A DNA stretch of 31,276 nt, taken from a virus (lineage: Duplodnaviria > Caudoviricetes). Positions 4,383-30,531 of the stretch are shown piece after piece; the stretch's first letter is position 1, and the number at the start of each line of letters is the position of its first letter. The DNA is taken from positions 1 to 31,276 of the IMG/VR virus record IMGVR_UViG_3300020045_005261; one strand, 5' to 3'. Below the pieces are notes generated by a model that saw only the letters and a program-made list of their open reading frames with translations, did not search any database and was not told the DNA's origin. The position numbers and the translations under genes were made by a program.

Positions 4383-4466
4383 ACTAACGTGGTGGAATGC
4401 ATACACGCAAGACTTAAACTCTTGTGATCTTAATAGGTCATGCCAGTTCAAATCTGGTCGTTAGTA
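4383..4466 (+). tRNA. trnL: tRNA-Leu(UAA), class II, no encoded CCA
   Basis: Acceptor ACTAACG/CGTTAGT+A; anticodon arm CAAGA-CTTAAAC-TCTTG; variable arm TGATCT/AGGTCA; T arm GCCAG-TTCAAAT-CTGGT. Confidence 0.9.
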
Positions 4467-10049: not shown

Positions 10050-10475
10050 ATGATATACGTTAAAGAAATAGACGTTCCTAAAACTAAAACTCGTAAGAAC
10101 TTTATTAAGAAGTTTTTAACAGGTAAAAAAATTCCATCTTATCAAGATCCAGAATTTACAAAAGTTCAATGTAATGGTAAAGGTGAAAATGTTGATGGAG
10201 CTAGTCGTAGTATTACAGAATTACATGAATTAACTAAATCTAGATTTCCTGCTACGTCAATGAAAGCAATGGTTAAAATCTTATTTGAATTAATTGAAGA
10301 AGATCAATCAGTGATATTAGTTTGGTGTGATAAAATTCAAAAAGTAGTTGTAAAATATGTCCCAAATACTTCTGCAGAATGGATTTCTAAATATAGTATA
10401 AAAAACCATTATACTAAGAAAGGTATAGATGGTTATAGTTTAGCTGATTATAATGAAATTAAAGATAATTTGTAA
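10050..10475 (+). CDS. Hypothetical protein, paralog of 11520-11987
   Basis: Shared YxDPEF..Q, RS..E and LV.CD motifs. Confidence 0.8.
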   Translation: MIYVKEIDVPKTKTRKNFIKKFLTGKKIPSYQDPEFTKVQCNGKGENVDGASRSITELHELTKSRFPATSMKAMVKILFELIEEDQSVILVWCDKIQKVVVKYVPNTSAEWISKYSIKNHYTKKGIDGYSLADYNEIKDNL

Positions 10476-10870
10476 TGGAAAAAGAATTTGTAAGCTACGA
10501 AATTGCATTAGCTTTAAAAGAATTAGGATTTGATAAACCTTGTTTTTGTATCTGGAATAGAGAAAAGAAAATTAGATTTAACAATTTACATAATTCTAAC
10601 GATAGTAATAAAAATGCTAAACTAACAAATAATAATGGTAAATATCCAGCACCAACATTCTCACAAGCTTTTAGATGGTTTAGAGAAAAACATATAATTG
10701 GAGAGATAAAATTTAAAGGAGGTTGGACTACTAAAACATCTTGGTATGATTATGTTATTTATTCTGACATAGACTGGGTAAATGATAAACCTAATAAACA
10801 ATGGAAAAATTACGAAGAAGCTGAATTAGAATGTCTTAAAAAAATAATAGAAATAGTAAAAAATAAATAA
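10475..10870 (+). CDS. Hypothetical protein, paralog of 18977-19402
   Basis: Shared E.A...KE.GFD, PT.S....W.RE.H and YE.A motifs. Confidence 0.8.
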   Translation: MEKEFVSYEIALALKELGFDKPCFCIWNREKKIRFNNLHNSNDSNKNAKLTNNNGKYPAPTFSQAFRWFREKHIIGEIKFKGGWTTKTSWYDYVIYSDIDWVNDKPNKQWKNYEEAELECLKKIIEIVKNK

Positions 10871-10872
10871 AA

Positions 10873-11520
10873 ATGAAAGAATTGATTTGTATAAATCCAA
10901 AAAATTATAAACTTACAGAAGGTAATAAGTATGTAATTGTTATTGATGAAGGTGAAACTGTTATGATTGTTAATGACAGTAATAAAACTGTCAGATATTA
11001 TAAAGATCTATTTCAAGAAATTGAAGAAGAAATTATTCCTGAACCAGAACCAGTTGTTGTTAGAACTGAACAAGATTTAATTGAAAGTATTGCTAGTGAC
11101 GATAAAGATATAACTTTTATTGATTTTAATAATGAATTAGTTTCTATTGATAATTATTTATCTATTTTAAATAATGAAAATAGTTTTAGTTGTGGTATTA
11201 AAAATGTAACTAATATTGGTGGTCAATTAGAAGAAATTTATGGTGTTATTGAAGAATTAAATCATGATGAAGATTTACCATTATTAACAAAAGCTTTAAT
11301 TAATCATCATTTTAAAAACTATATTAGACATAAATCAAATAATGGTTTTAATGCTGGTATTTATTTATTATCTTGTAATATTGATGGTAATGGTTTAGAT
11401 GAAGAAACTGTTGATATTTTAAATGAAATTTCAGATTTTAATACAGAACCTAAATTAAATCCTAATAGTGGTAATCAAATTAAATTATGGGGATTTTATA
11501 AATCTAATTTAGACAACTAA
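10873..11520 (+). CDS. Hypothetical acidic protein
   Basis: 215 aa; ends with an NPNSGNQIKLW motif. Confidence 0.8.
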   Translation: MKELICINPKNYKLTEGNKYVIVIDEGETVMIVNDSNKTVRYYKDLFQEIEEEIIPEPEPVVVRTEQDLIESIASDDKDITFIDFNNELVSIDNYLSILNNENSFSCGIKNVTNIGGQLEEIYGVIEELNHDEDLPLLTKALINHHFKNYIRHKSNNGFNAGIYLLSCNIDGNGLDEETVDILNEISDFNTEPKLNPNSGNQIKLWGFYKSNLDN

Positions 11521-13164: not shown

Positions 13165-13752
13165 ATGTTATTATATAGACATTTAAAACCTAATGGTGAA
13201 ACTTTTTATATTGGAGTTGGAAATAAAATTAGACCTTATACTAAATCAGATAGAAGTGATTTTTGGTGGAAAGTTGTTAACAAATATGATTATGAGATTC
13301 AGATTTTAAAAACAGGTTTGACTAAAAAAGAAGCTTATGAATTAGAAATAATGTTAATAAGTTGGTATGGAAGACGAGATTTAGGATTGGGACCACTTGT
13401 TAATCTTACAAATGGTGGGGATGGTTCTAACAATGTAATTGTTTCACAAGAAACTAGAGATAAACTTAGTAAAATACATACTGGAAGTAAAAGATCTGAA
13501 GAAACTAAAAGACGAATGTCTGAAAAAGCTAAATTGCGAATTTTTTCAGAAGAAACTAGACTGAAAATGTCAGAATCTGCAAAGAAAAAGATAATTACTA
13601 AAGAACATTATGATAAAATACATACTTCTCGAAAAGGTGAAAATAATGACATGTTTGGTAAAACTCATTCAGAAGAAACGCGAGAAAAAATAAGACAAAA
13701 AGCATTATTAAGATATAATAAAAATGATCAATTAGAAGAAAATACTTCATAG
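13165..13752 (+). CDS. Free-standing GIY-YIG homing endonuclease with NUMOD3 repeats
   Basis: LYRH...FYIGVG, EAYELE, NLTNGGDG, SEETK/HSEETREKI repeats. Confidence 0.85.
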   Translation: MLLYRHLKPNGETFYIGVGNKIRPYTKSDRSDFWWKVVNKYDYEIQILKTGLTKKEAYELEIMLISWYGRRDLGLGPLVNLTNGGDGSNNVIVSQETRDKLSKIHTGSKRSEETKRRMSEKAKLRIFSEETRLKMSESAKKKIITKEHYDKIHTSRKGENNDMFGKTHSEETREKIRQKALLRYNKNDQLEENTS

Positions 13753-13816: not shown

Positions 13817-14368
13817 ATGAAAAAAGATTATGGTTGGGGAAGTTCTAGCCCTGTAACATGGAGTTTTACAATAAATAATAATGAAACAATTAATAAAAAA
13901 CAAAGTTGTTATAGTAGAATGGTTGATAATGTAATTTTTATAACTTTATATGATTTAGATTGTGAAAAAACTATAAAATATAAAATGTTTTATTTGCAAT
14001 ATGTTTCAGATATGTATGATTTAAATGCTGAAATTACAGAAGAGTATTTTAAATTTAAATGTCAAGGTAATAGATATAAAAATATGTTAATTTGTGCAAC
14101 TATTAGATTATTATGGGAAAATATAGGTAGTATTAATCCGGCAATTCCAATGCATGATGTATTTTTTGAAAAATTACAAAATGGTAAATCTAAATATAGA
14201 AATAAATTAAAACGTTTTTGTAATTTTTATTCTCAAATTGATTTAGGTGAAAAAAAGAATTATTTTCATGATGGTCATTCTTGGAAACCTTTTCAAACAT
14301 TAATTAAATCTACTTCAGATTTTAAGAATTATAATGGAAATTCTGTTAATGAATTTTTCCATAAATAA
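13817..14368 (+). CDS. Hypothetical protein
   Basis: 183 aa ORF. Confidence 0.8.
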   Translation: MKKDYGWGSSSPVTWSFTINNNETINKKQSCYSRMVDNVIFITLYDLDCEKTIKYKMFYLQYVSDMYDLNAEITEEYFKFKCQGNRYKNMLICATIRLLWENIGSINPAIPMHDVFFEKLQNGKSKYRNKLKRFCNFYSQIDLGEKKNYFHDGHSWKPFQTLIKSTSDFKNYNGNSVNEFFHK

Positions 14369-15298: not shown

Positions 15299-15991
15299 AT
15301 GATAGGAATTTATAAGATAATTAACCCTAATGGTAGAGTTTATATCGGTCAAAGTAGAGATATTGAAAAAAGATTTAAACAATATAAAAGATTAAAATGT
15401 AAAAAACAACCTAGATTATACAATAGTTTTTTAAAATATAATGTTGAAAATCACACATTTGAAATTATAGAAGAATGTGATTTCAATGATTTAAATATTA
15501 AAGAACGTTATTATCAAGATTTATATGATGTCACTAATGAAAAAGGTTTAAATTGTACTTTAACAAAAACAGATATTTTACCACAAGTTGTTAGTGACAT
15601 AACTAGAGAAAAAATTGGAAATAGAATACTTTCAGAAGAAAGTCGACTTAAAATGAGTTTATCTAGAAAAGGTACAAAATGGTCTGAAGAAACCCGATTA
15701 AAAGTCAAAGGTAAGATTATTGCAGAAAATGTTAAAATTAAAATGAGTTTAGCCAAAAAAGATAAATATAATGGTGGAAATCATCCAATGTATGGTAAAA
15801 CTCATTCAGAAGAAACTAAATTAAAAATGAGTTTATCTAAAACTAAAAAAGTTATAAATGTAATAACAAATGAGATTTTTAATTCTTCTGATGAATGTGT
15901 TTTAATTAATAATCTTTCTATTACCTCAGCTTATTTAAGATTAATGCTTTCTGGAAAAAGAAATAATAATACAGATTTTAAATATTTATAA
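15299..15991 (+). CDS. GIY-YIG homing endonuclease with NUMOD3
   Basis: GIYKI...VYIGQS...KRF, HPMYGKTHSEETKLKMS. Confidence 0.9.
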   Translation: MIGIYKIINPNGRVYIGQSRDIEKRFKQYKRLKCKKQPRLYNSFLKYNVENHTFEIIEECDFNDLNIKERYYQDLYDVTNEKGLNCTLTKTDILPQVVSDITREKIGNRILSEESRLKMSLSRKGTKWSEETRLKVKGKIIAENVKIKMSLAKKDKYNGGNHPMYGKTHSEETKLKMSLSKTKKVINVITNEIFNSSDECVLINNLSITSAYLRLMLSGKRNNNTDFKYL

Positions 15992-17000: not shown

Positions 17001-18026
17001 ATGTTTAATTTAAATAAAGAAAAACAATTAATATCTAAATCTGAAATTTTAAAATATTTTAATGAATTAGAAATATTTCAACATTATATAGATGATGAAG
17101 TAATGTTAGGTAAATCAATATTATCACCTTTAAGAAAGGAAAACAATCCTTCCTTTGCATTTTTTATTGGAGAAGGTAATGAAATATGTTTTAATGATTT
17201 TAAGCTCGGAAAAGGTGATTTTATACAGTTTCTGAGATTAAGAGATGGTTTAACATATTTTGAAGCTTTAAGTAAAATTGCAAATGATTTCAATCTTCAA
17301 GATGATTATATTTGTAAAATATATCCTAAAGAAGGTAAAGATAAATCTAAAGTTAGAATTATTAAAGATGATATGTTATCTAAATATACAGGTTATTATT
17401 TAGGTAAGAAAGCTAGAGAATGGCAATCACATGATGTATTATTCTGGAGACAATTTGGTATTGGTAAAGAAACATTAGAATTTTTTAATGTACAACCAAT
17501 AAGTTTTATATTTATTGGAGATAAGTGTTTTCCTGCTGATAAATATGCATATTGTTTTATAGAAGAAAAAGACAATATTGAGACATATAAAATTTATCAA
17601 CCTTTTAGTGAAAATTATAAATGGATTAATAATCATAATAATTCTGTATGGCAAGGTTGGACACAATTACCAGAATCTGGAGAAACATTAATAATTACTA
17701 AATCATTAAAAGATGTTATGTGTTTATATGAAGTTGCTAAATTACCAGCAATTGCAATGCAATCTGAAAATGTATTACCAAAAAGACATATATTTCAACA
17801 ATTAGAATCTAGATTTACAGATATTGAATTATTATATGATAATGATTTTGATAAAGATCCTAATTGGGGAAGAATATTTGCAGATAAATTTGCTAAAGAA
17901 TTTGGATTAGTTGATAGTTTTATTCCAGATAAATATAAAGCTAAAGATTTTTCAGATTTAGTGAAGCTTATGGGTCAAGAAAATGCAAAACATATATTAT
18001 TTTACGAAACATTGTTACCTTTTTAA
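17001..18026 (+). CDS. DNA primase (TOPRIM, crAss-like type)
   Basis: SPLRKENNPSF and FNDF N-domain; IITKSLKDVM, YDND, KDFSDL. Confidence 0.85.
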   Translation: MFNLNKEKQLISKSEILKYFNELEIFQHYIDDEVMLGKSILSPLRKENNPSFAFFIGEGNEICFNDFKLGKGDFIQFLRLRDGLTYFEALSKIANDFNLQDDYICKIYPKEGKDKSKVRIIKDDMLSKYTGYYLGKKAREWQSHDVLFWRQFGIGKETLEFFNVQPISFIFIGDKCFPADKYAYCFIEEKDNIETYKIYQPFSENYKWINNHNNSVWQGWTQLPESGETLIITKSLKDVMCLYEVAKLPAIAMQSENVLPKRHIFQQLESRFTDIELLYDNDFDKDPNWGRIFADKFAKEFGLVDSFIPDKYKAKDFSDLVKLMGQENAKHILFYETLLPF

Positions 18027-18042
18027 AAAAATAATGATAAAT

Positions 18043-18558
18043 ATGAGAAAAAATAATAAAAGATCTGAAGGTTATAAAACTAGAGCTGAAAGAAAGAAGG
18101 AAAAGAGAGAATTAAAAAGAAAATCACAAATGGAAAAAAAGATTTTAATAGGTCTATATGATGATTATAGAAAAGATGGTTGTTTAAATGGAATGTTGAG
18201 TAATGCTTCTTGTAAATTAATAGGTACTTATTCTACAGAACCCAATTATACAATGTATAATATAGATAAAGATGAATCTTGTGTGGTAGTAACAAATGGT
18301 AATTATTCTATTAAAGTTGAAGTTTGGGAGGTAAGTGAATCGTATATAGATACAATTGAAAAAACTTATAGTTATTATCCACAATTTGAAGAATACCCAC
18401 AAGATTATAAAAAAGAAGAAGTTTTAACACCGTTTGGTAAAGTTTCAATGTATTTCACAAATATAGAACAATCTGAAAAAGATATTATAATTAGTGGCGA
18501 TTGGATTGAATATTTGAATTATAAAAAAGTAATTGGTAATAAAAAAGTAACTATATAA
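18043..18558 (+). CDS. Degenerate gamma-glutamylcyclotransferase (AIG2-like) paralog; start uncertain (18034/18043/18130)
   Basis: Aligns with the next gene (STEPNYTM, VEVWEV, TPFGK, SGDW) but lacks YGSL and LEGY. Confidence 0.7.
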   Translation: MRKNNKRSEGYKTRAERKKEKRELKRKSQMEKKILIGLYDDYRKDGCLNGMLSNASCKLIGTYSTEPNYTMYNIDKDESCVVVTNGNYSIKVEVWEVSESYIDTIEKTYSYYPQFEEYPQDYKKEEVLTPFGKVSMYFTNIEQSEKDIIISGDWIEYLNYKKVIGNKKVTI

Positions 18559-18560
18559 CT

Positions 18561-18971
18561 ATGAGAAAAAAACATTTAGTCGCATGTTACGGAAGTTTAC
18601 GTAAAACTATGAGTAATTATCAATATTATTTATCAAGTTCTGAATATAAAGGTACATTTTCAACAGAACCTGAATATACTCTACATTCTTTATCGTTTTA
18701 CCCGGGATTAAAATTAAATGGTAATACATCTGTTGTAATGGAAGTTTATGAAGTAGATGATTATACTTTAGAAAATTTAAATAGATTGGAAGGTTATCGT
18801 TCTGGAGAAAAATCAACATTTTATGATAGAATTGAAATTAATACTCCTTGGGGAAAAGCTTTTACATATATTTATGTAAATGAATTATCAAAAAATTCTA
18901 TTGTGGAATCAGGAGATTGGGTGTTACATAAATCTAAAGAAAAATCGTGGTCAAGTGTCACAAATAACTAA
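18561..18971 (+). CDS. Gamma-glutamylcyclotransferase (GGCT/AIG2-like)
   Basis: YGSLRK, YPGL, EVYEV, LNRLEGY, SGDW. Confidence 0.9.
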   Translation: MRKKHLVACYGSLRKTMSNYQYYLSSSEYKGTFSTEPEYTLHSLSFYPGLKLNGNTSVVMEVYEVDDYTLENLNRLEGYRSGEKSTFYDRIEINTPWGKAFTYIYVNELSKNSIVESGDWVLHKSKEKSWSSVTNN

Positions 18972-18976
18972 AGATT

Positions 18977-19402
18977 ATGGAAGAACAATTAATTTCATTT
19001 GAAACGGCTAAACTAGCTAAAGAAAAAGGATTTGATACTCCTACTAGAAATTTTTATGCAGATGAATCTTGGAAAGATGAACAAGTTTATACCTGTAATG
19101 AAGTTGGTTATCCTGAATACACAAAAGATATGGGAAATAATCACGGATTTGGAGATATAACTTTAACACCAACTCAATCTTTATTAAATAAATGGCTAAG
19201 AGAAGTTCATAAAATTCATATTGAAATTGAATATTCTTTTAAACAAAATAAATATTCTGTAGATATATATAATTCTGATGAAAAAATTATCGATAATCAA
19301 TTATTTAAAATATCTTCTAAAATTGAAGATTATTTAAAATATAAAAGTTATGAAGATGCTTTAGAATTTGGATTACAAGAAGGATTAAAATTAATAAAAT
19401 AA
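18977..19402 (+). CDS. Hypothetical protein, paralog of 10475-10870
   Basis: ISFETAKLAKEKGFD, PTQSLLNKWLREVH, SYEDALE. Confidence 0.8.
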   Translation: MEEQLISFETAKLAKEKGFDTPTRNFYADESWKDEQVYTCNEVGYPEYTKDMGNNHGFGDITLTPTQSLLNKWLREVHKIHIEIEYSFKQNKYSVDIYNSDEKIIDNQLFKISSKIEDYLKYKSYEDALEFGLQEGLKLIK

Positions 19403-19417
19403 AAATAACTAAAAATA

Positions 19418-20113
19418 ATGAATAATATTAAAAAGATAGCCATTGTGGGACATTTCACAGGAGAAAATAGTTTTGGAATTTCTAAACCATATTTATTCTT
19501 TTGGCAACAATTTGGAGAAGTATCTTTAATTTCACCATTTGAAACACATGTAAGAGATGTAGATTTATTAGTAATGCCAGGTGGTCAAGATGTAGATCCT
19601 TATAGATATTTATCACCTGAAGAGGATACTCATATATTTACAGGAACTCCTTGTATGCAAAAAGAAAGATTTGATAGATTTCTATTATCTAAATATATGG
19701 AAGCTAATATTCCGATATTTTGTACTTGCAGAGGTATGCAATCTATGTATGTTACCCTAGGAGGTAAACTTAATCAACATATGTCACATGAAACTAATCC
19801 ATCACATGATGGTAGAAAATTAATGCATGGAATTGATTTTGAAAATCAATATATAATTCCAGGATTTGCAGAAGTTACTCAGCATAAAAAAGGTGAATAT
19901 AAAATTAATAGTAGGCATCATCAAACTGTTAATGAAGAAACTAAACCTGAAATTGTAACTATTCTAGCAAGACATAGTACAGATGATGAAATTGAATTTG
20001 CAACAACATTTCCACATTACCCTTGTCATATGACACAACATCACGTGGAGGATACATCAGATCCTGCTACAGTATTTCTAATTAATCATTTATTAAATTT
20101 AAACAATGACTAA
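19418..20113 (+). CDS. Class I glutamine amidotransferase / peptidase C26-like
   Basis: PGGQDVDP, CRGMQ nucleophile elbow, NSRHHQ, QHHVE. Confidence 0.88.
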   Translation: MNNIKKIAIVGHFTGENSFGISKPYLFFWQQFGEVSLISPFETHVRDVDLLVMPGGQDVDPYRYLSPEEDTHIFTGTPCMQKERFDRFLLSKYMEANIPIFCTCRGMQSMYVTLGGKLNQHMSHETNPSHDGRKLMHGIDFENQYIIPGFAEVTQHKKGEYKINSRHHQTVNEETKPEIVTILARHSTDDEIEFATTFPHYPCHMTQHHVEDTSDPATVFLINHLLNLNND

Positions 20114-20933
20114 ATTAAAAAAATATAAATTATTTAGACCTCTGATTTTATCACGTCATCCATCACACTCAATTTTAAGAGCTAAGAATCAAACATTACC
20201 ATTATTACCATTTAGATCTGTAATACGTCTTGGTTCGACGACAGACTCAGACGGTAGATTAGAAATTAATACAGTACAAGCTGTTAAAAATTCAGCTTCT
20301 AAACTGTTAATGAAACAGAAGTTTACTGAAGCTGGAGTTAAAACTGCTGATTGGATGACTTATAAAAATGGTTCATTTAAAGCACACGATACAGATTTAG
20401 ATACAGATATTGAAATATATCCAATTGTAGCTAAATCTCATTTTGGTTCTAGAGGAATTGGTAATACTAAATTTAATACTAAAGAAGAATTAGAAGCTTG
20501 GTTACCAAATAAAAATCTTAATAATTATATATTTGAAGAGTTTGTTAAAATGACTAGAGAATATAGATTACATGTAACTAAATTTGGTTGTTTCTATACT
20601 TGTAGAAAATTAGTTAAAAATGATGCACCTGAAGGTACTTGGCAACGTCATGATGATGTTTGTAATTGGGTATTAGAAGAAAACCCATCATTTAAAAAAC
20701 CTAAGAATTGGGATGCTATTGTTGCAGATTGTATTAAAGCAAAAGATGCTTTAGGATTAGATATTTGTGCATTTGATGTAGGTGTTCAAGGTGCTAAAGA
20801 TGGAGTTGAAAGAGAAAATCCTGAATGGATTATATTTGAATCTTGTTCGGCTGCCAGTTTTGGTGCTGTTACAGGTCAAAAATATATAGAAATTTTGCCA
20901 AAATTATTAATAGATAAATATAATAACAAATGA
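20106..20933 (+). CDS. ATP-grasp ligase (RimK/YheCD-like)
   Basis: SKLLMKQKF, PIVAKSHFGSRGIG, FEEF, EYRLHV, AFDV, IFESCSA. Confidence 0.85.
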   Translation: MTKLKKYKLFRPLILSRHPSHSILRAKNQTLPLLPFRSVIRLGSTTDSDGRLEINTVQAVKNSASKLLMKQKFTEAGVKTADWMTYKNGSFKAHDTDLDTDIEIYPIVAKSHFGSRGIGNTKFNTKEELEAWLPNKNLNNYIFEEFVKMTREYRLHVTKFGCFYTCRKLVKNDAPEGTWQRHDDVCNWVLEENPSFKKPKNWDAIVADCIKAKDALGLDICAFDVGVQGAKDGVERENPEWIIFESCSAASFGAVTGQKYIEILPKLLIDKYNNK

Positions 20934-21934
20934 ATCCAGAATTATTAAACAAAATAAAACATTATCATTTAGATAATACAACTTCAAAAAGTACAATTAA
21001 AACTTTTTTAAATACTTGTATCGGAGCTGGATTGTATCATGAAGTAGAGGGTGATGAATTACATAATAAAGTAGAAACTATTTATAATTATTTAAATAAT
21101 GTTATTAAAGAACCAGAAGTTAAACAACCTTTAAATATTGTAATTGCAGATGATTCTTCATCTTTAGAATACGTATCATATTTAAAAGAAAAATATGAAG
21201 TTACTGTCCATAAATCAAATAATGTAAAAAATCCAAAAGATATTGATTTAGTATTATTTACAGGTGGTGAAGATGTTTGTCCTGAAAGATATTTTGAAGA
21301 AACTGGTAAATTTACAAGTTTTAATAAAAATAGAGATGAAAAAGAAATAGATAATTTTTATAAATTTAAAAATCATTCTTTTCTATTAGGTATTTGTAGA
21401 GGAAATCAGTTACTTACCGTATTAAGTGGTGGTAGATTAATTCAACATGTAGAAGGTCATTGTAGAGATCATTCAATCATTTTAAATAATAGAATGAAAT
21501 GTAACATTACTTCCTCACATCATCAAATGATATATCCTTTTGATTTAAATGAAAAAGATTATGAATTACTTGCTTATTCTGAATATTTTCAAAGTAATAC
21601 ATATCTTAATGGAAATAATGAAGAAGTTGATTTATCTAAAAATTTCTTAGAACCTGAAATTGTATATTATAAAAATACAAATGCTTTATGTATTCAAGGT
21701 CATCCTGAATGGAGTCATTGTGAAAAAAGAACTTCGAATATGTGTTTAAATTTAATTGATAAATATTTAAAAGAATTTAAAAATTCAAAAAAAGAAAATA
21801 ATTTAGGTTATTATAAATCAATTAATATTGCTGATTTAAAATATGGCGATAATTATTATAGTGATGCAATTGAAAAAGAAGAAGTAGAAGATAACTATGA
21901 TTGGGAATTAGAAGAAGATAATTCTCCACTTTAA
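20930..21934 (+). CDS. Class I glutamine amidotransferase / peptidase C26-like
   Basis: TGGEDV, GICRG, SSHHQM, QGHPE. Confidence 0.9.
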   Translation: MNPELLNKIKHYHLDNTTSKSTIKTFLNTCIGAGLYHEVEGDELHNKVETIYNYLNNVIKEPEVKQPLNIVIADDSSSLEYVSYLKEKYEVTVHKSNNVKNPKDIDLVLFTGGEDVCPERYFEETGKFTSFNKNRDEKEIDNFYKFKNHSFLLGICRGNQLLTVLSGGRLIQHVEGHCRDHSIILNNRMKCNITSSHHQMIYPFDLNEKDYELLAYSEYFQSNTYLNGNNEEVDLSKNFLEPEIVYYKNTNALCIQGHPEWSHCEKRTSNMCLNLIDKYLKEFKNSKKENNLGYYKSINIADLKYGDNYYSDAIEKEEVEDNYDWELEEDNSPL

Positions 21935-21953
21935 TAAAAAATTATAAAAATAT

Positions 21954-22764
21954 ATGAAAATAAATAATATCACTTTGGGTACAGATCCAGAATTATTCTT
22001 AGCAAAAGACAATAAAATTATTTCAGCAATTGGTAAAATTGGGGGTTCTAAATCGGAACCCCAACCGATTTCAGATGATGGTCATTTTATTCAAGAAGAT
22101 AATGTTACTATTGAATATAATATCCCACCTTGTAAAAATGTAGAAGATTGGGTATTTCATCATAATTTTGTTAAAGATTATTTAGAAGTATTAGTTTCTG
22201 GAATGGGTTGTACATTAGCAATTCAACCTATTGCTACATTAGAAGATTCTGAGTTAGACAACGATATAGCGCGTCTTGCGGGTTGTACACCTGATTTCGA
22301 TGTATGGAATGAATGTATTAATGAACCAGTAGACTTATCTATTACCAACAAGAGAAGCAGGGGGTCATATTTCTGTGGGTTGGGATGATTTTACACAAGA
22401 ACAACAGCTAGATATGATTAAAGCAATGGATGCTACTTTAGGTTTAGAATCTGTATTATTAGATGATGATACAGAACGTAAAAAACTTTATGGTAAAGCA
22501 GGTTGTTTTCGCTTCACCGCTTTTGGAATTGAATATAGAAGTTTATCTAATTTCTGGATTAAATCTGATGAATCTTTGCAATGGGCTTGGAAAACTACAA
22601 TGAAAGCAATTGATTTAGTTAATTCTGATAAAATTGAAGAAGTTAAAGAGTTAGGTGGTTATATTGTAGAAGCAATTAATACTAATAATAAAGAATTAGC
22701 TCAAGAGTTATTAAATAAAATTGATATAATTGTTGATAATAAAATAAAAGTAACAAATGAATAA
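21954..22764 (+). pseudogene. phiEco32-like COOH-NH2 ligase type 2, split by a frameshift near 22357
   Basis: Frame A: GTDPELF, QEDNV..EYN, GCTPDF. Frame B: AGGHISVG, RKKLYGKAG.FR, IEYRSLSNFW. Joined length about 270 aa. Confidence 0.85.
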
Positions 22765-23278
22765 TTTAAAACATTCCGATTATATTACACATATTAATAA
22801 TGAAGAAGATAATGTTTATTTAAAATCTAAACATTTTCCAGTAAATATGAGATTATTTAAAACATCTGAACAATACAAAAATATAATTTTACAGCAATGT
22901 AATTATATTAGAGAATTGTGTCTAGATGTAAAAAAAGGTTATAAAAAACCACACGGAATGAGTTCTGCAAACGCAGGATTAGCATTTAATATTATTGGTA
23001 TTACTAAAAATAGATTACAAGATAATGAATATTGTAAAATATTAATAAATCCTAGAATTGTAGAATATATGGGAGATTTAGTAGAAACTACAAGTAATTG
23101 TGGATCTATAACATTAGATAAACCTATTAAATTAACAAGAAATTCTGAAATAATTGTAAATTATTTTGATGAAAAAGGTAATGAATTTGTAGAATTATTT
23201 ACAAGAGAAACTGGTGCTTTTACAATACAACACGAAGTGGATCATAATAATGGTATATTAATAATAGATTATAAATAA
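22757..23278 (+). CDS. def: Divergent peptide deformylase
   Basis: LINP, metal Cys motif SNCGS (canonical EGCLS), QHEVDH. Confidence 0.8.
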   Translation: MNNLKHSDYITHINNEEDNVYLKSKHFPVNMRLFKTSEQYKNIILQQCNYIRELCLDVKKGYKKPHGMSSANAGLAFNIIGITKNRLQDNEYCKILINPRIVEYMGDLVETTSNCGSITLDKPIKLTRNSEIIVNYFDEKGNEFVELFTRETGAFTIQHEVDHNNGILIIDYK

Positions 23279-23294
23279 ATAAAATAATAAAAAA

Positions 23295-25226
23295 ATGGTA
23301 AAAATAATTCTAATATTAGCATTATTACAATATATATATAATTTTATATTTGGTTATAAATCAAATATATTATCCTGTGGAATCTTTGGGATGGCTACAA
23401 ATAAACCTGAAAATTTAGATGTAAATGGAGTTCATATTCTAGGTATATTTAATATAGAACGTGGTAAGATGTCTTGTGGATTATCATGGGATGGTGATGT
23501 ACAGTATGGTCTTGGTTTTGATAAATTATATACAGATTTTATTGTAGATAGAGAAATCAAACCTACAAAAACACCAATTATGATTGGTCATACTAGACAA
23601 CCTAGTTATGGATTTGCGATTACAGAAGATAATGCTCATCCATTTGGATTTGGTACAAGTAAAGATGGAGAAGGTTATGAAATGATTTTCTGTCATAATG
23701 GAACATTAAAAAATCATAAAGAATTAGCTAAAAAATATAATATTGAATTATCTGAAAAAGTTGTGAAACAATCTCATGGAGGTCATGAATATACAACAAC
23801 TCGTGATAAAATTGATAGTGAAATATTAGGTGAAATATTATATAGAACAAAGAAATTTCATGTATTAAGTGAATATATTGGAGCTGCTGCTTTAGCTTGG
23901 ACTTGGATTGATGAACCTAATAAACTATATTTATGGTCAGGTGCATCTAAACAAACTAAAGGTTCAGCATTAATTACTGAAATTGAAGAAAGACCTATGA
24001 ATGTTTATTGTAAAAATGAAAATAATATGTTTTTCTCATCATTAAAAGATAGTTTAACTGTTTTAGGTGCATCTAAAAAAGATGATTTACAAATAGATTA
24101 TAATACAGTTTATATTATTACAGATGGTGATTTTGCAAATGCTGAAAAACATAAAGTCAGTCGGAAGCAATCTGGTCAAAACGAATCTGTTGTTACCTCA
24201 GTGTTTAATAGAGGTAATAGATATAATAACTCTTTTGACGATTACTGTGATTGGGAAAATTATCAAGATGAAAGAACATTAGCTGTAACTACACCTCCTA
24301 TTAATGTAGAAACTACAACATACTCAATATCTAATTTAATTGACGATAAAACAATTCGTCCTATTGTAGATTATAAAAATAAAGTATATTCTAAAAGTTT
24401 GAGATATTGGGAAAGAGGAACTCTTATAAATGGAATTTATGTTTATGTAAAAAATTGGGGTTTTAAATTTGCAGGAATTGATTCTTATACAGCTAATAGT
24501 TTTGTTAAAAGTATAAAAGGATTATCTTTTAATTACAATAGTGGATCTTTTAATTACAATATATTGAACACTGAAGGTTTTGTACCATTTAAAAAAGATG
24601 TTGATAATATACAATTTCATTATTTTACAGAAGGTGTTCTATTAAAAACTGTAGAAGATTATAATAGAGCTGTAACTTTAAGAAAAGAGTTGAAATTACC
24701 AACAAAATATATAAATTATGAAATTTTATCTTATATATCTAAACATCCTATAATTGATATGAATTCCACAAAATCAATTACTATCGCAATGTTAGATAAT
24801 AAACCTTTTACTGGAAATGTAACAGAATTAGGATTTGAAAAAATATATTATTTTAATAACGGAGTATTGGTAAAATGGACTAAAAGAGCTGATTTAATAG
24901 TAGAAAATAAAACACCTGTTATAATATTACCTACTACTACAGAATCAAATAAATTTGACAAAGAATTGTTTGATAATTCCATTAAAACTATTGAAAATAT
25001 TGAAAAAAATATTAAAATAGAAGATGTCGCTAAAGAAATAGAAGATGAATTATTTATTAAAGAATTACTTATGGAATCTTTTGAAAGACATTCTGAAGAA
25101 ATATCTGAAACAATTATTGAACTTTCTGATTGGAAAGAACACGATCTTATTAAAGGTGCATTAAACACATTAAATTTAATAAGTCATACATTAAAAGATT
25201 TTGTTGAAACACCTAATAAAAAATAA
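23295..25226 (+). CDS. Class II (Ntn) glutamine amidotransferase with a long C-terminal extension
   Basis: CGIFG at residue 28, ERG, GHTR, NAHPF, HNGTL, IDSE. Confidence 0.88.
   Translation: MVKIILILALLQYIYNFIFGYKSNILSCGIFGMATNKPENLDVNGVHILGIFNIERGKMSCGLSWDGDVQYGLGFDKLYTDFIVDREIKPTKTPIMIGHTRQPSYGFAITEDNAHPFGFGTSKDGEGYEMIFCHNGTLKNHKELAKKYNIELSEKVVKQSHGGHEYTTTRDKIDSEILGEILYRTKKFHVLSEYIGAAALAWTWIDEPNKLYLWSGASKQTKGSALITEIEERPMNVYCKNENNMFFSSLKDSLTVLGASKKDDLQIDYNTVYIITDGDFANAEKHKVSRKQSGQNESVVTSVFNRGNRYNNSFDDYCDWENYQDERTLAVTTPPINVETTTYSISNLIDDKTIRPIVDYKNKVYSKSLRYWERGTLINGIYVYVKNWGFKFAGIDSYTANSFVKSIKGLSFNYNSGSFNYNILNTEGFVPFKKDVDNIQFHYFTEGVLLKTVEDYNRAVTLRKELKLPTKYINYEILSYISKHPIIDMNSTKSITIAMLDNKPFTGNVTELGFEKIYYFNNGVLVKWTKRADLIVENKTPVIILPTTTESNKFDKELFDNSIKTIENIEKNIKIEDVAKEIEDELFIKELLMESFERHSEEISETIIELSDWKEHDLIKGALNTLNLISHTLKDFVETPNKK
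24524..24561 (+). repeat. 17-bp in-frame direct repeat (SFNYN x2)
   Basis: ATCTTTTAATTACAATA at 24524 and 24545. Confidence 0.8.
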
Positions 25227-25228
25227 AA

Positions 25229-26992
25229 ATGAGTGCTGAAAAAAAAGTAGTAACAATAAAAGGAGAAGAATTACCTATTTCTCAATGTAGAAAATTTAAT
25301 AAACTTTATTATAAATTAGGAGATATTAATATTCAAAATTCAGGAGATTGTTATTTAATTAATGGTAAATGTTATAGAGAGGAAACTGGATTAATTGGGT
25401 ATAACCATAGTATTAAACAATATATTGTTTTAGATAATTCTGTAATTCATGGAGTTGTTGATATAATAGAAAATAAATTAATAATAGGATATTTTAATAA
25501 TAATGTAAAATATTCTAAAATTATAGATAAAAATAATAATACTTTTTATTTATTTAATCCAGAATTATTTAAAGATAATAAAGAATATAGAGAGCAATTA
25601 TCTACTGGAGATTTTTATCATATATCAAGATTACCAGCGTATAAATTTAATTCTATTATATTTCCAAATAAAAATTATAAATATAGTTTACCATATGACT
25701 CAAAGGGAATTATTGGAAATAATTTAAAGAATTATAATGAAAATTATAATCCTGAAATTTCAAAGAATATTAAGAATTATGCACCATTATTAGAAAATTT
25801 ATCATTTGGTTTAGAATTTGAAACTACTAAAGGATTTATTCCAAATAGAATTCTTGATAAATATGGATTAATTCCATTAAGAGATGGTTCTATTTCAGGT
25901 ATTGAATATGTTACAGTACCTATGGAAGGTGAAAAAGGATTACAATGTACTGTAGATATTCTTAATGTATTGAAAGAAAGAACTGAATACAGCGATGATA
26001 CTTGTTCATTACATTTACATTTAGGAAATATTCCAAGAACAAAGGAATTCATATTAGCATTTTTTAAAGTTGGTATGAAAATTCAAGATGAAATGTTTAA
26101 AATGTTTCCTTTATACAAAAAGTATAATTACCATATTAAAAATAAAAATTATTCTGCACCATTACCAACATTTGAAATTTTATCACAACTAGATCCAATC
26201 ATCAATTCTGATAATATTGATATTAATTTTGGAGTATTATATAAATATTTATCAATGGGTCAAGATTTTAAATCTATTGGAAATAGTCTTGATAATGTTC
26301 ATAGTCATCCAGCAGATCCAAATGGTAATCAGAAATGGAACATTCGACCAAGATATTTATTATATAACATAATTCCGTTAATCTTTGGTAATAAACAAAC
26401 TATTGAATTTAGAATTCATACACCTACTTATGAAGTAAATAAAATTTTACCATTTATATTTATGAATACTTTAATAGTTAATTTTACAATAAGGAATCAA
26501 AATATGATTTTAAAAACTAAATCTTTTTTAAAAGAATTAACTTTAATTGATATTTTAAATAGTCAAATTGATAACTATGACGTTTCTAATAAAAATATAT
26601 TTAGAGATTTAATGTATGATTATATTGAAAAAAGAAAGAATTATTGTGAAAGACAAATTTTAGCTGGTAATATTTTAGGTACTGAATCTGAAATACCTTT
26701 TTCAAATTATATTGATTGGTTAGATATTAAAAAAAATAAACATTCAATATCATATAATACTTCTACAACTTCAATAAATATAAATGATTTAAAACCTTTT
26801 ATTATAGGAAAACCAAGAGTTTATAAATCTAAATCTATTGTATCTGCAGAAAGTTATTATTCTCAACTTAGTGATATGAATAATTTTTATAAAGATTCAT
26901 GGTCTAATAGTATTGGGATTATAAATAAAATAGAAAAATTAGAAAAAATAGATAACCCTAAAACAAATTCAGATGACAACCTCCCTTTCTAA
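25229..26992 (+). CDS. Putative amidoligase (COOH-NH2 ligase superfamily)
   Basis: FGLEFE, DGSISGIEYVT, CSLHLH, TIEFR. Confidence 0.85.
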   Translation: MSAEKKVVTIKGEELPISQCRKFNKLYYKLGDINIQNSGDCYLINGKCYREETGLIGYNHSIKQYIVLDNSVIHGVVDIIENKLIIGYFNNNVKYSKIIDKNNNTFYLFNPELFKDNKEYREQLSTGDFYHISRLPAYKFNSIIFPNKNYKYSLPYDSKGIIGNNLKNYNENYNPEISKNIKNYAPLLENLSFGLEFETTKGFIPNRILDKYGLIPLRDGSISGIEYVTVPMEGEKGLQCTVDILNVLKERTEYSDDTCSLHLHLGNIPRTKEFILAFFKVGMKIQDEMFKMFPLYKKYNYHIKNKNYSAPLPTFEILSQLDPIINSDNIDINFGVLYKYLSMGQDFKSIGNSLDNVHSHPADPNGNQKWNIRPRYLLYNIIPLIFGNKQTIEFRIHTPTYEVNKILPFIFMNTLIVNFTIRNQNMILKTKSFLKELTLIDILNSQIDNYDVSNKNIFRDLMYDYIEKRKNYCERQILAGNILGTESEIPFSNYIDWLDIKKNKHSISYNTSTTSININDLKPFIIGKPRVYKSKSIVSAESYYSQLSDMNNFYKDSWSNSIGIINKIEKLEKIDNPKTNSDDNLPF

Positions 26993-27677
26993 AAATAAAG
27001 ATAGTATTGATTGGAAAAAAGAATTAGATTTAGATTGGTCAATAACTTTATCTAATTTATTAGAATCCGATTATGGAAAGAATCTAAATACTTTTATAGA
27101 ACAAATTTATTTATCTGATAAAGAAGTTTATCCAATAAAAAGTAGATTATTTACACCTTTTAGAAGATGTTCTTTAAAAGATGTAAAAATTGTTGTAATT
27201 GATGATAGACCTGTTAAAGATTTAAGATCATCAGGAATAGGTAGAGGATTAATTGAACCCTCTAGTTTAATTAAAAATTTACCTATGGAATTAAGAGAAT
27301 TTAGAGATTGTATATTTGAGACAATATATGGTAATCAATATAGTATAACTAATTTTGATAATAGTTTATATGATTATTGTGATAATGACATGTTATTTTT
27401 AAATTGTTCAATGTGTGTTGAAAATAATAAAGATTATACTGTAGTTTGGAAAAATTTTATTCGTAATGTAATTCAAGAAATTAATAAAAAAAAAGAGAAT
27501 ATTGTATATTTATTTTTAACAGGAAACAATTTAGATTTACGTAATTATATTGACGAAAGTAAAAATAAAGTTATTGTGAATCCATTTTCAGTATTAATGA
27601 GTTATTCAACTATCTTTACAGAATTAGATGAATATATTGAAAATAAATATCCTCCATTTAATAGAATATTATGGTAG
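26973..27677 (+). CDS. Uracil-DNA glycosylase family 1-like protein with degenerate catalytic motifs
   Basis: VYP...F..F......VKIVVI, LFLN, W..F...VI; GQDPY replaced by DDRPV and HPSP by NPFS. Confidence 0.72.
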   Translation: MTTSLSKNKDSIDWKKELDLDWSITLSNLLESDYGKNLNTFIEQIYLSDKEVYPIKSRLFTPFRRCSLKDVKIVVIDDRPVKDLRSSGIGRGLIEPSSLIKNLPMELREFRDCIFETIYGNQYSITNFDNSLYDYCDNDMLFLNCSMCVENNKDYTVVWKNFIRNVIQEINKKKENIVYLFLTGNNLDLRNYIDESKNKVIVNPFSVLMSYSTIFTELDEYIENKYPPFNRILW

Positions 27678-29428: not shown

Positions 29429-29812
29429 ATGGAAGAAAAAATTAAAACAGTTGCTATTTTTATGGGATTGTTTCAAGATGACAAAGGTTTTTGGGGATTT
29501 AAAAATACACCTGAATATCAACGATGTCATTCTGATAGAATTAAAGATGTTTATCAATATGATAGAGATTGGAATTTGTTAATGAAAGTTATTGAAAAGA
29601 TTACATCTATTTTAATGTTAGATGATAATTTTAAATATAATTATCTTTATATTGGTTATGATTTTGAAGATAAAGAACATTATGTTAATTTATATGTATC
29701 AGAAGATAAACAAATTAACGGAATATCTAAAACATCTAAAATAGAAGCTGTGTATGAAGCAGTAGTAAAATTTATTAACTTTTATAATAAACAAAAGGAA
29801 GAAATAAATTAA
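29429..29812 (+). CDS. Hypothetical phage protein
   Basis: 127 aa; YDRDWNLLMKVIEKI and IEAVYEAVVKFI motifs. Confidence 0.8.
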   Translation: MEEKIKTVAIFMGLFQDDKGFWGFKNTPEYQRCHSDRIKDVYQYDRDWNLLMKVIEKITSILMLDDNFKYNYLYIGYDFEDKEHYVNLYVSEDKQINGISKTSKIEAVYEAVVKFINFYNKQKEEIN

Positions 29813-30531
29813 TGAGTAAAATTACAGGTATATATAAAATAGAAAGTCCATCTGAACGAATCTATATAGGACAAGCTGTAGATATTACTAGACGATTCAA
29901 AGAATATAAAAATATAAAAAAAAGTAAATTACAAATAAAATTACATCGATCTTTTAATAAATATGGAATAGAAAATCACATATTTGAAATAGTTGAAGAA
30001 ACAATTTCAGAAGATTTAAATAATAAAGAAAGATATTGGCAAGATTTTTATGAAGTAATTTCAAAAAAAGGATTAAATTGTACTTTAGTAAAATCAGATG
30101 ATAGATCTGGTGTTTTAAATGAAGAAACTAAATTAAAAATTAGTTTAGCAAATACTGGAAATTTTCATAATGAGGAAACTCGTGCTAAAATGGGAATTAA
30201 AAATAAAGGTAGAATTGCATCTCAAGAAACTAGAGATAAAATGTCTAAATCTAGAAAAGGTGTAAAATTATCAGATGAGCATATAAAATCAATAAGTGAA
30301 GGTAGAAAAGGAATTATTTTCTCAGATGAACATAAGCAAAACTTAGCTAATAAAAAATTAGGAACAAGAAATAAAAGTTTAGAAAAAAAAGTAATTGATG
30401 TAGAAACTGGAATTATTTATAATTCTATTAAAGAAGTATCTAATTTATTTAATATTAACTATGATAAATTAGGAAGTTGGTTACGTGGTGATGTTAATAA
30501 TAGATCTAATTTTAAATTTTATTATGAATAA
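29812..30531 (+). CDS. GIY-YIG homing endonuclease with NUMOD3 repeats and C-terminal HTH
   Basis: GIYKI...IYIGQA...RRF, EETR/SDEH repeats, YNSIKEVS. Confidence 0.9.
   Translation: MSKITGIYKIESPSERIYIGQAVDITRRFKEYKNIKKSKLQIKLHRSFNKYGIENHIFEIVEETISEDLNNKERYWQDFYEVISKKGLNCTLVKSDDRSGVLNEETKLKISLANTGNFHNEETRAKMGIKNKGRIASQETRDKMSKSRKGVKLSDEHIKSISEGRKGIIFSDEHKQNLANKKLGTRNKSLEKKVIDVETGIIYNSIKEVSNLFNINYDKLGSWLRGDVNNRSNFKFYYE

Follow-up and report, generated by a model that had tools for sequence, protein, structure and literature searches.

Gene content and conservation of the cassette

The DNA analyzed here, referred to below as the window, is the entire 31,276-base fragment of the virus record IMGVR_UViG_3300020045_005261 (GC content roughly 24%). 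Between a primase gene (17001-18026) and a gene for a UDG-like protein (26973-27677), the window carries a run of genes for ATP-dependent ligases, amidotransferases, and proteins of the gamma-glutamyl cyclotransferase (GGCT) fold, which is almost certainly the crAss-phage form of the amidoligase cassette of phiEco32-type phages. All genes of the cassette are on the + strand, with intergenic gaps of -20 to +19 nucleotides (nt). The first begins 16 nt past the primase, and a primase-adjacent placement is also found in phages phi14:2 and DL54. The cassette comprises the following features, where GAT-I and GAT-II denote class I and class II amidotransferases.

18043..18558, + strand: GGCT1, a GGCT-fold protein with a basic N-terminal tail (PF06094, GGACT, E 1.2e-5)
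18561..18971, + strand: GGCT2, a gamma-glutamyl cyclotransferase with YGSL (10) and LEGY (76) intact (PF06094, E 4.3e-17)
18977..19402, + strand: hypothetical phrog_12005 gene (phrog_12005, E 1.3e-28), with a paralog at 10475-10870
19418..20113, + strand: GAT-I a, a Peptidase C26-type class I amidotransferase/gamma-glutamyl hydrolase (PF07722, E 2.9e-24; C104-H209-E211 intact)
20106..20933, + strand: ATP-grasp peptide ligase, RimK-like (phrog_2599, E 1e-23; E245-x-C247)
20930..21934, + strand: GAT-I b, Peptidase C26-type (PF07722, E 2.7e-14; C156-H258-E260 intact)
21954..22764, + strand: phiEco32-like COOH-NH2 ligase type 2 of the GS/GCS family (PF14395; phrog_3815), split into 21954-22388 and 22375-22764
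22757..23278, + strand: divergent peptide deformylase (PF01327, E 1.8e-16)
23295..23375, + strand: GAT-II leader, 27 hydrophobic residues preceding the catalytic Cys28
23295..25226, + strand: GAT-II (PF13522, a GATase_6 call), with C28, GHTR 98, HNG 134, and DSE 174 plus two C-terminal domains
25229..26992, + strand: Amidoligase_2, a predicted GS/GCS-fold ligase (phrog_2443, E 2.9e-33; PF12224, 22.1 bits, cut-off 22)

An earlier note on this DNA, made from the sequence alone, had assigned these genes to their families. Pfam bears out two GGACT proteins, two Peptidase_C26/GATase proteins, PF14395, Pep_deformylase, GATase_6, and Amidoligase_2, and the ATP-grasp assignment is supported by phrog_2599 and by RimK-type structures. 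The note's contiguous, tightly packed cluster is likewise real in its single strand and short gaps, except that the phrog_12005 gene interrupts it. The position of this gene differs among relatives and, judged on these sequence comparisons, it is a mobile insert outside the pathway. The window phage itself is most likely a Steigviridae-like crAss phage (Crassvirales) because its best isolate matches, the Cellulophaga phage phi14:2 and crAssphage cr108_1, share its gene order; the terminase, capsid, and RNA polymerase markers lie outside the 31 kb fragment.

We surveyed IMG/VR for relatives of the type-2 ligase and found 461 stretches encoding one, the best 80 of which gave 79 loci. Sixty-seven loci, near-duplicates included, had enough flanking sequence, and the other 12 were left out. 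The ATP-grasp, amidoligase, and GAT-II genes were all present in 66 of the 67 loci, and GAT-II adjoined the amidoligase gene in 66/66, with a spacing of 2 nt in the window. GAT-I was found in 63/67 loci, and two GAT-I genes in 29/67. GGCT was detected in 28/67 loci and in two copies in 14/67, using a crAss-derived profile that probably under-counts outside crAss-like loci. The full eight-gene layout of the window recurred in 14/67. This co-conservation is far beyond chance, and the minimal core consists of the ATP-grasp, two ligases, GAT-II, and usually GAT-I. The co-conservation proposed in the earlier note therefore holds for the ATP-grasp, amidoligase, and GAT-II genes but not for the deformylase, which is present in 0/67 loci. 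That note had also set the deformylase and the paired paralogs apart as extra features; the second GAT-I represents a real, separate lineage.

The cassette is widespread in phages. An intact type-2 ligase from a relative (L007) matched 308 of 50,697 phage records, whose hosts, among the top host names and the 60 rows listed, are peptidoglycan-bearing Gram-negative bacteria. Among 185,579 prokaryote genomes, only six loci were found, all metagenome-assembled; five are arranged as in the phage cassettes, and at least two are beside a phage primase. The window cluster is not of exceptional size, as a 268 kb phage (G002:C1:24585-61300; L116, L117) has a larger cassette in two blocks, which contain two ATP-grasps, three PF14395 ligases, an amidoligase-like protein, two GAT-II, two GAT-I, a GGCT, a GNAT, and unknown partners.

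Comparison with known phages supports the description of the cluster as an expanded phiEco32-like cassette, with ligases, GAT-II, ATP-grasp, and GGCT beside the primase. The closest counterpart is phi14:2 g037-g041 (NC_021806.1; Crassvirales, Steigviridae), which occupies the same primase-UDG slot and has five of the window's genes in the same order, namely GGCT, ATP-grasp (48%), type-2 ligase, GAT-II with a similar hydrophobic leader, and amidoligase (39%). It has no GAT-I, second GGCT, or deformylase, all of which the window possesses. The phiEco32/Kuravirus, LUZ24/Bruynoghevirus, and RIO-1 cassette has the type-2 ligase, amidoligase, GAT-II, ATP-grasp, and GGCT near the primase, as in the window (Bas90 and DL54 records). 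However, the gene order of Bas90 and DL54 is unlike that of the window, and no GAT-I occurs in the stretches examined. These two phages also carry a conserved partner of 190-205 residues between the ligases, which the window is without; their GAT-II starts at or near Met-Cys, whereas the window GAT-II has a leader, and the window amidoligase has an extra N-terminal domain relative to theirs. The Leptolyngbya phage Lbo-JY46 (PP438436.1) resembles the window in having two GAT-I, GGCT, both ligases, ATP-grasp, and GAT-II, and cr108_1 (NC_055878.1) in having, between primase and UDG, a GAT-I immediately ahead of the type-2 ligase. Unlike the window, both have a leaderless GAT-II and neither a pseudo-GGCT nor a deformylase; cr108_1 has no GGCT and contains two unknown genes for proteins of 300-335 residues.

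Ligases, amidotransferases, and the GAT-II leader

The GS/GCS fold of the type-2 ligase is predicted from Pfam and motifs, since a search of PDB sequences gave no match; a profile comparison with the amidoligase gave only 5% probability. In the window its reading frame is broken by a 2-nt deletion near 22356: phrog_3815 aligns in two halves, 1-126 and 147-266, and PF14395 matches the C-half (26.6 bits, cut-off 25). A programmed frameshift was considered and rejected, as the gene is in frame in four aligned relatives and related-phage contigs from 4/4 sequencing runs keep both missing bases. The deletion is private to the window contig and may reflect an error of assembly or a variant that is truly defective; none of the runs contained as much as half of the sampled sequence words, and none could be identified as the source sample. 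With this ligase broken, the window is a poor test subject. Intron-like inserts split the type-2 ligase gene in three other loci (L010 12100-13400, L011 12400-13520, and L013 5230-5800), those of L011 and L013 within a few bases of where the window has its deletion, and similar inserts split GAT-I genes in two loci (L009 8245-10000 and L014 10879-12870). An Rfam scan of the split-gene loci matched no intron family.

GAT-I lies immediately upstream of the type-2 ligase in 44/67 loci, and the two are fused in one protein (P0242), suggesting that GAT-I b is likely the partner of the type-2 ligase. Both GAT-I proteins of the window retain their Cys-His-Glu triads, fall into separate lineages in a tree, and show weak matches to models of PuuD and gamma-glutamyl-CDP-amidate hydrolase. 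Of 18 long homologues, 10 have a GNAT-like domain with a "CCG...NxxSxN" motif fused to the type-2 ligase (P0243-P0252), and a GNAT-like gene is found inside the cassettes of several close relatives (L005 7908, L010 7174, L014 6992, and L037 3754); it is absent from the window cassette.

The amidoligase residues assigned to metal, ATP, and carboxylate binding (E196, E198, D219, E226, H262, H264, R375, E393, and R395) are invariant in 44/44 sequences. Its predicted structure (pLDDT 83.9) is most similar to YbdK (Z 10.6), Dop (Z 10.5), GCS and GS (both Z 10.2), and PafA (Z 9.5), consistent with a GS/GCS fold. The protein also has an N-terminal domain of roughly 185 residues, to which whole-protein searches, which barely probe it, assigned no fold, and a disordered tail. 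The ATP-grasp protein has no Pfam match; its best PDB match is an alpha-L-glutamate ligase (E 1.1e-11), among RimK-type solved structures. It belongs to a clade with the variant motif E-x-C in place of E-x-N, C being found in 7/59 sequences and N in 51/59. In related non-crAss loci a small protein resembling glycine-cleavage H (GcvH) follows the ATP-grasp gene (L084 9868-10308; family of 12 open reading frames [ORFs]); it matches PF01597 with E 0.003, below the cut-off, and could be a carrier.

Phage GAT-II proteins are commonly annotated as GlmS. GlmS models score 17-25 bits against the window GAT-II, far from their cut-offs of 381-418, and Pfam detects no SIS (sugar isomerase) domain; the fold matches are confined essentially to the glutaminase domain, with residues 345-535 barely probed. 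The predicted structure (pLDDT 84.3) is closest to the glutaminase domains of PurF and GlmS (Z 23.6-22.8), slightly above EgtC (Z 20.7), and points to an Ntn glutaminase domain in which C28, R101, N135, G136, and D174 are invariant (69 sequences). Whole-protein searches, which barely probe the middle domain, assigned it no fold.

The catalytic Cys of GAT-II follows the 27-residue leader. Among the 120 homologues listed, 86 have a leader of 22-30 residues, 31 start with Met-Cys, one has a short leader, and two lack the motif. The hydropathy of the window leader reaches 1.98 over 19 residues, a transmembrane level, and a single helix is predicted at residues 2-19. Its dN of 0.078 is similar to that of the catalytic domain (0.076), and its dN/dS of 0.36 indicates purifying selection. 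The leader state changes at least 12 times on a FastTree phylogeny of 85 rows, and leaders are present in 19 of 38 crAss-like loci; we therefore consider the leader membrane-anchor-like in sequence and conserved but dispensable. Leaderless loci contained no separate small gene encoding it. The available texts on the cassette do not mention it, although no search aimed at the leader was made. Ntn enzymes need a free N-terminal Cys, and GAT-II may accordingly cleave off its own leader.

Active GGCT and GGACT proteins carry two catalytic motifs, a YG[ST]L loop and the Glu within LEG. GGCT2 keeps both. In GGCT1, YDDY replaces the loop and KTYSY replaces the Glu motif, and the motifs are degenerate in 9/9 relatives, which start at the same position and so confirm the start at 18043. 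Because its catalytic motifs are gone yet purifying selection is maintained (pooled dN/dS 0.49 over seven non-independent pairs), GGCT1, with its basic tail, has likely been conserved in a non-catalytic role, as a pseudo-enzyme.

Peptide deformylases are characterized by the motifs GxGxAAxQ, EGCxS, and HExxH. The window protein keeps the Cys and the HExxH metal ligands (QHEVDH); motif 1 is GMSSANAG, motif 2 is NCGS, and TIGR00079 scores 52.5 bits (cut-off 104). A deformylase profile matched 2 of 2,990 ORFs from 113 loci, both in the two loci that had been picked by deformylase. Contigs bridge from the gene into both neighbors, so the insertion is natural. Contig depth in run X1 is about 7 at the deformylase versus 200-660 in the flanks, and it falls comparably in the other three runs, although depth does not equal the share of cells. 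A 92% deformylase copy sits ahead of the primase in another phage (L027). We rejected the deformylase as a core step of the cassette, given its absence from the surveyed loci, and it is likely an accessory insert, or passenger. One point against a pure passenger is that the 268 kb phage has a 47% identical deformylase about 11 kb from its larger cassette. Genes of NAD-salvage type were seen near the deformylase of this phage (NadM/NUDIX-like and phosphoribosyltransferase-like by eye; L028 6457-8948) and near the cassette of Lbo-JY46 (PncB-like and PRPP synthetase as annotated; L002 3261-7470).

Proposed gamma-glutamyl chemistry and candidate substrates

Taken together, these families make it very probable that the cassette performs gamma-glutamyl/amide chemistry. 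We propose that three ATP-dependent ligases would form amide bonds joining glutamate or ammonia to a host substrate and that adjacent partner hydrolases would release glutamate again, forming paired "on" and "off" enzymes in the cytoplasm. Each GS/GCS-fold ligase would phosphorylate the gamma-carboxyl of glutamate and then join an amine, the ATP-grasp could add a further peptide bond, and GAT-I, GAT-II, and GGCT2 may remove the gamma-glutamyl group, releasing glutamate or 5-oxoproline. Alternatively, the amidotransferases may supply glutamine-derived ammonia to substrate-bound glutamate. Since GS/GCS-fold enzymes activate the gamma-carboxyl of glutamate, there would be no gain in coupling a glutaminase to free glutamate; either substrate-bound glutamate would be amidated, or the amidotransferase-fold proteins would be gamma-glutamyl erasers by analogy with known writer-eraser pairs. 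Such pairs are EgtA/EgtC (GCS-fold and Ntn hydrolase), PuuA/PuuD (GS-fold and Peptidase C26), and BtrJ/BtrG (ATP-grasp and GGCT). The fold pairings are as in the window, a likeness of working principle only: the other genes of these pathways are absent from the window, and NCBIfam scores are far under cut-off.

The earlier note had combined the genes into a nine-enzyme write-and-erase pathway. Its pairing of ligases with hydrolases gains support from gene adjacency and from the one GAT-I/ligase fusion, but the nine-enzyme scale is overstated. The genes are real, yet at most seven have clade-intact catalytic motifs, one of these being broken here, and the remaining two are GGCT1, a likely pseudo-enzyme, and the deformylase, a likely passenger.

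The phage amidoligase or "peptidoglycan modification" cassette was reportedly described by Iyer et al. 2009 and Hardies et al. 2013. The prediction, said to date from 2009, is of peptidoglycan modification or a superinfection block. In the portions of the literature available to us, peptidoglycan modification is put forward as a hypothesis (PMC5498523; PMC11945000), the cassette is listed in a LUZ24-like phage (PMC3890496), and amidoligase and GATase pairs are reported (PMC10580990; PMC11706807). Literature searches, which did not cover subscription papers, yielded no experimental product of the cassette in the text they returned, in agreement with the earlier note's statement that only predicted functions are known.

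We tentatively rank a cytoplasmic cell-wall (envelope) precursor first among the candidate substrates, while regarding it as somewhat short of an even prospect. The stem peptide of UDP-MurNAc-peptide or lipid II would be altered, and with it the wall of the infected cell. This reading comes first, only just ahead of a free metabolite, on three grounds: the leader of membrane type, the range of hosts, and the hypothesis already in print. Several observations weigh against it. EgtA/EgtC, PuuA/PuuD, and BtrJ/BtrG all act on small soluble amines, and the fold of the amidoligase is tied among YbdK, Dop, GCS, and GS, so that no substrate is singled out. Pfam finds no peptidoglycan-binding or Mur-ligase domain in the cassette. 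The leader is missing from 18 of the 38 crAss-like loci and, as Ntn enzymes need a free N-terminal Cys, cleavage would release GAT-II from its anchor. GGCT immediately precedes the ATP-grasp in only 9 of the 28 GGCT-bearing loci, and the type-2 ligase is broken in the window contig. No experiment linking the cassette to the cell wall was found in the accessible literature, and an amidoligase with a GATase occurs in a virus whose predicted host belongs to the Poseidoniales archaea, according to the available part of PMC11706807.

The same chemistry could instead yield a free small molecule, in which a gamma-glutamyl group protects or carries an amine during assembly of a short peptide or an acylated amine that acts on host physiology or on anti-phage defence. 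We consider this a possible, if doubtful, alternative. The three fold pairings match known small-molecule pathways, both GAT-I proteins are of the Peptidase C26 type with the weak hydrolase matches described above, and GNAT-like and GcvH-like proteins accompany the ligases in other phages. Moreover, excerpts of PMC11990801 report that cassette-bearing Gordonclarkvirinae withstand most tested defences, though they propose another cause for this resistance. Neither a product nor a dedicated precursor enzyme is evident in the cassette, and a soluble product needs no membrane-type leader.

Reversible protein glutamylation, in which the RimK-like ATP-grasp and the Dop/PafA-like ligases would mark host or phage proteins and the hydrolases would remove the marks, seems unlikely. 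It would fit the RimK-type alpha-L-glutamate ligases as the best solved relatives of the ATP-grasp, the presence of Dop and PafA among the top amidoligase fold matches, and the conserved basic tail of GGCT1, which could bind nucleic acid or ribosomes. However, the fold scores are tied with those of small-molecule enzymes, and no small tag gene or target gene is conserved across the 79 loci surveyed.

A more elaborate version of these ideas is a long shot. In it, crAss-like phages would build a membrane-tethered, self-activating amide-tailoring complex, in which GAT-II is an anchored proenzyme that holds the amidoligase at the inner membrane and becomes active by leader self-cleavage, the dead GGCT serves as a scaffold, and GNAT and deformylase optionally cap and uncap amines. 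The complex would rewrite lipid II or make a new anti-defence metabolite.

Modification of DNA or nucleotides to protect the phage genome is improbable. The cassette adjoins the primase in the window, phi14:2, and DL54, and Gordonclarkvirinae are described as "remarkably resistant" to restriction with no modification pathway known, in the excerpts of PMC11990801. On the other hand, the window avoids restriction palindromes (observed/expected ratios of 0.48 for GATC, 0.54 for CATG, and 0.12 for GATATC), DNA of the cassette-bearing phage tf is cut by RsaI, HpaI, EcoRV, SmaI, and HaeIII according to the accessible text of PMC3517423, and no base-modification enzyme was found among the 35 window ORFs scanned, which represent part of the genome. 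Least probable is auxiliary nitrogen or glutathione metabolism (a gamma-glutamyl cycle) feeding the host amino acid pool, as proposed for Phage-ZRK32, which has four of the genes and a reported growth promotion, with no gene-level test in the available text (PMC10945688): a glutaminase and a ligase acting on free glutamate would form a futile cycle, and no host pathway to copy was seen among the prokaryote genomes searched.

Hundreds of lytic phages carry the cassette, among them therapy candidates and crAss-like phages, and solving its product would uncover either phage-directed wall remodelling or else a novel metabolite or protein tag made by the phage. The survey provides leads in the GAT-II/amidoligase and GAT-I/type-2 ligase pairs, in the minimal core, and in the parts to ignore (the deformylase and the phrog_12005 gene). 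The membrane-type leader makes a direct prediction of where the chemistry would take place.

Neighboring genes and minor observations

Profiles of the Kuravirus/LUZ24-type partners u10, u11, and famC matched none of the window ORFs, and no significant link connected the accessory families h183, u11, and famC with one another. Upstream of the cassette, two conserved hypothetical genes may be degenerate cassette partners: 10873-11520 weakly resembles a GNAT-like family (hhalign 67-78%), and 13817-14368 resembles u11 by eye only (profile comparison 1.8%). An ESM Atlas search returned only hypothetical proteins or sub-threshold matches, and counts of promoters and terminators were at chance level only.

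Searches with Pfam, PHROG, and NCBIfam profiles identified the replication genes of the window as those for a DNA polymerase, DnaB, Sak4, primase, the UDG-like protein, RusA, and an exonuclease. The catalytic motif of UDG is GQDP; the UDG-like protein has DDRP at this position, scores well under NCBIfam cut-offs, and is missing from some relatives, e.g., L007. Three genes resembling NUMOD3/GIY-YIG homing endonucleases are located in the replication region (13165-13752, 15299-15991, and 29812-30531), and a tRNA gene is found at 4383-4466 (Rfam RF00005).

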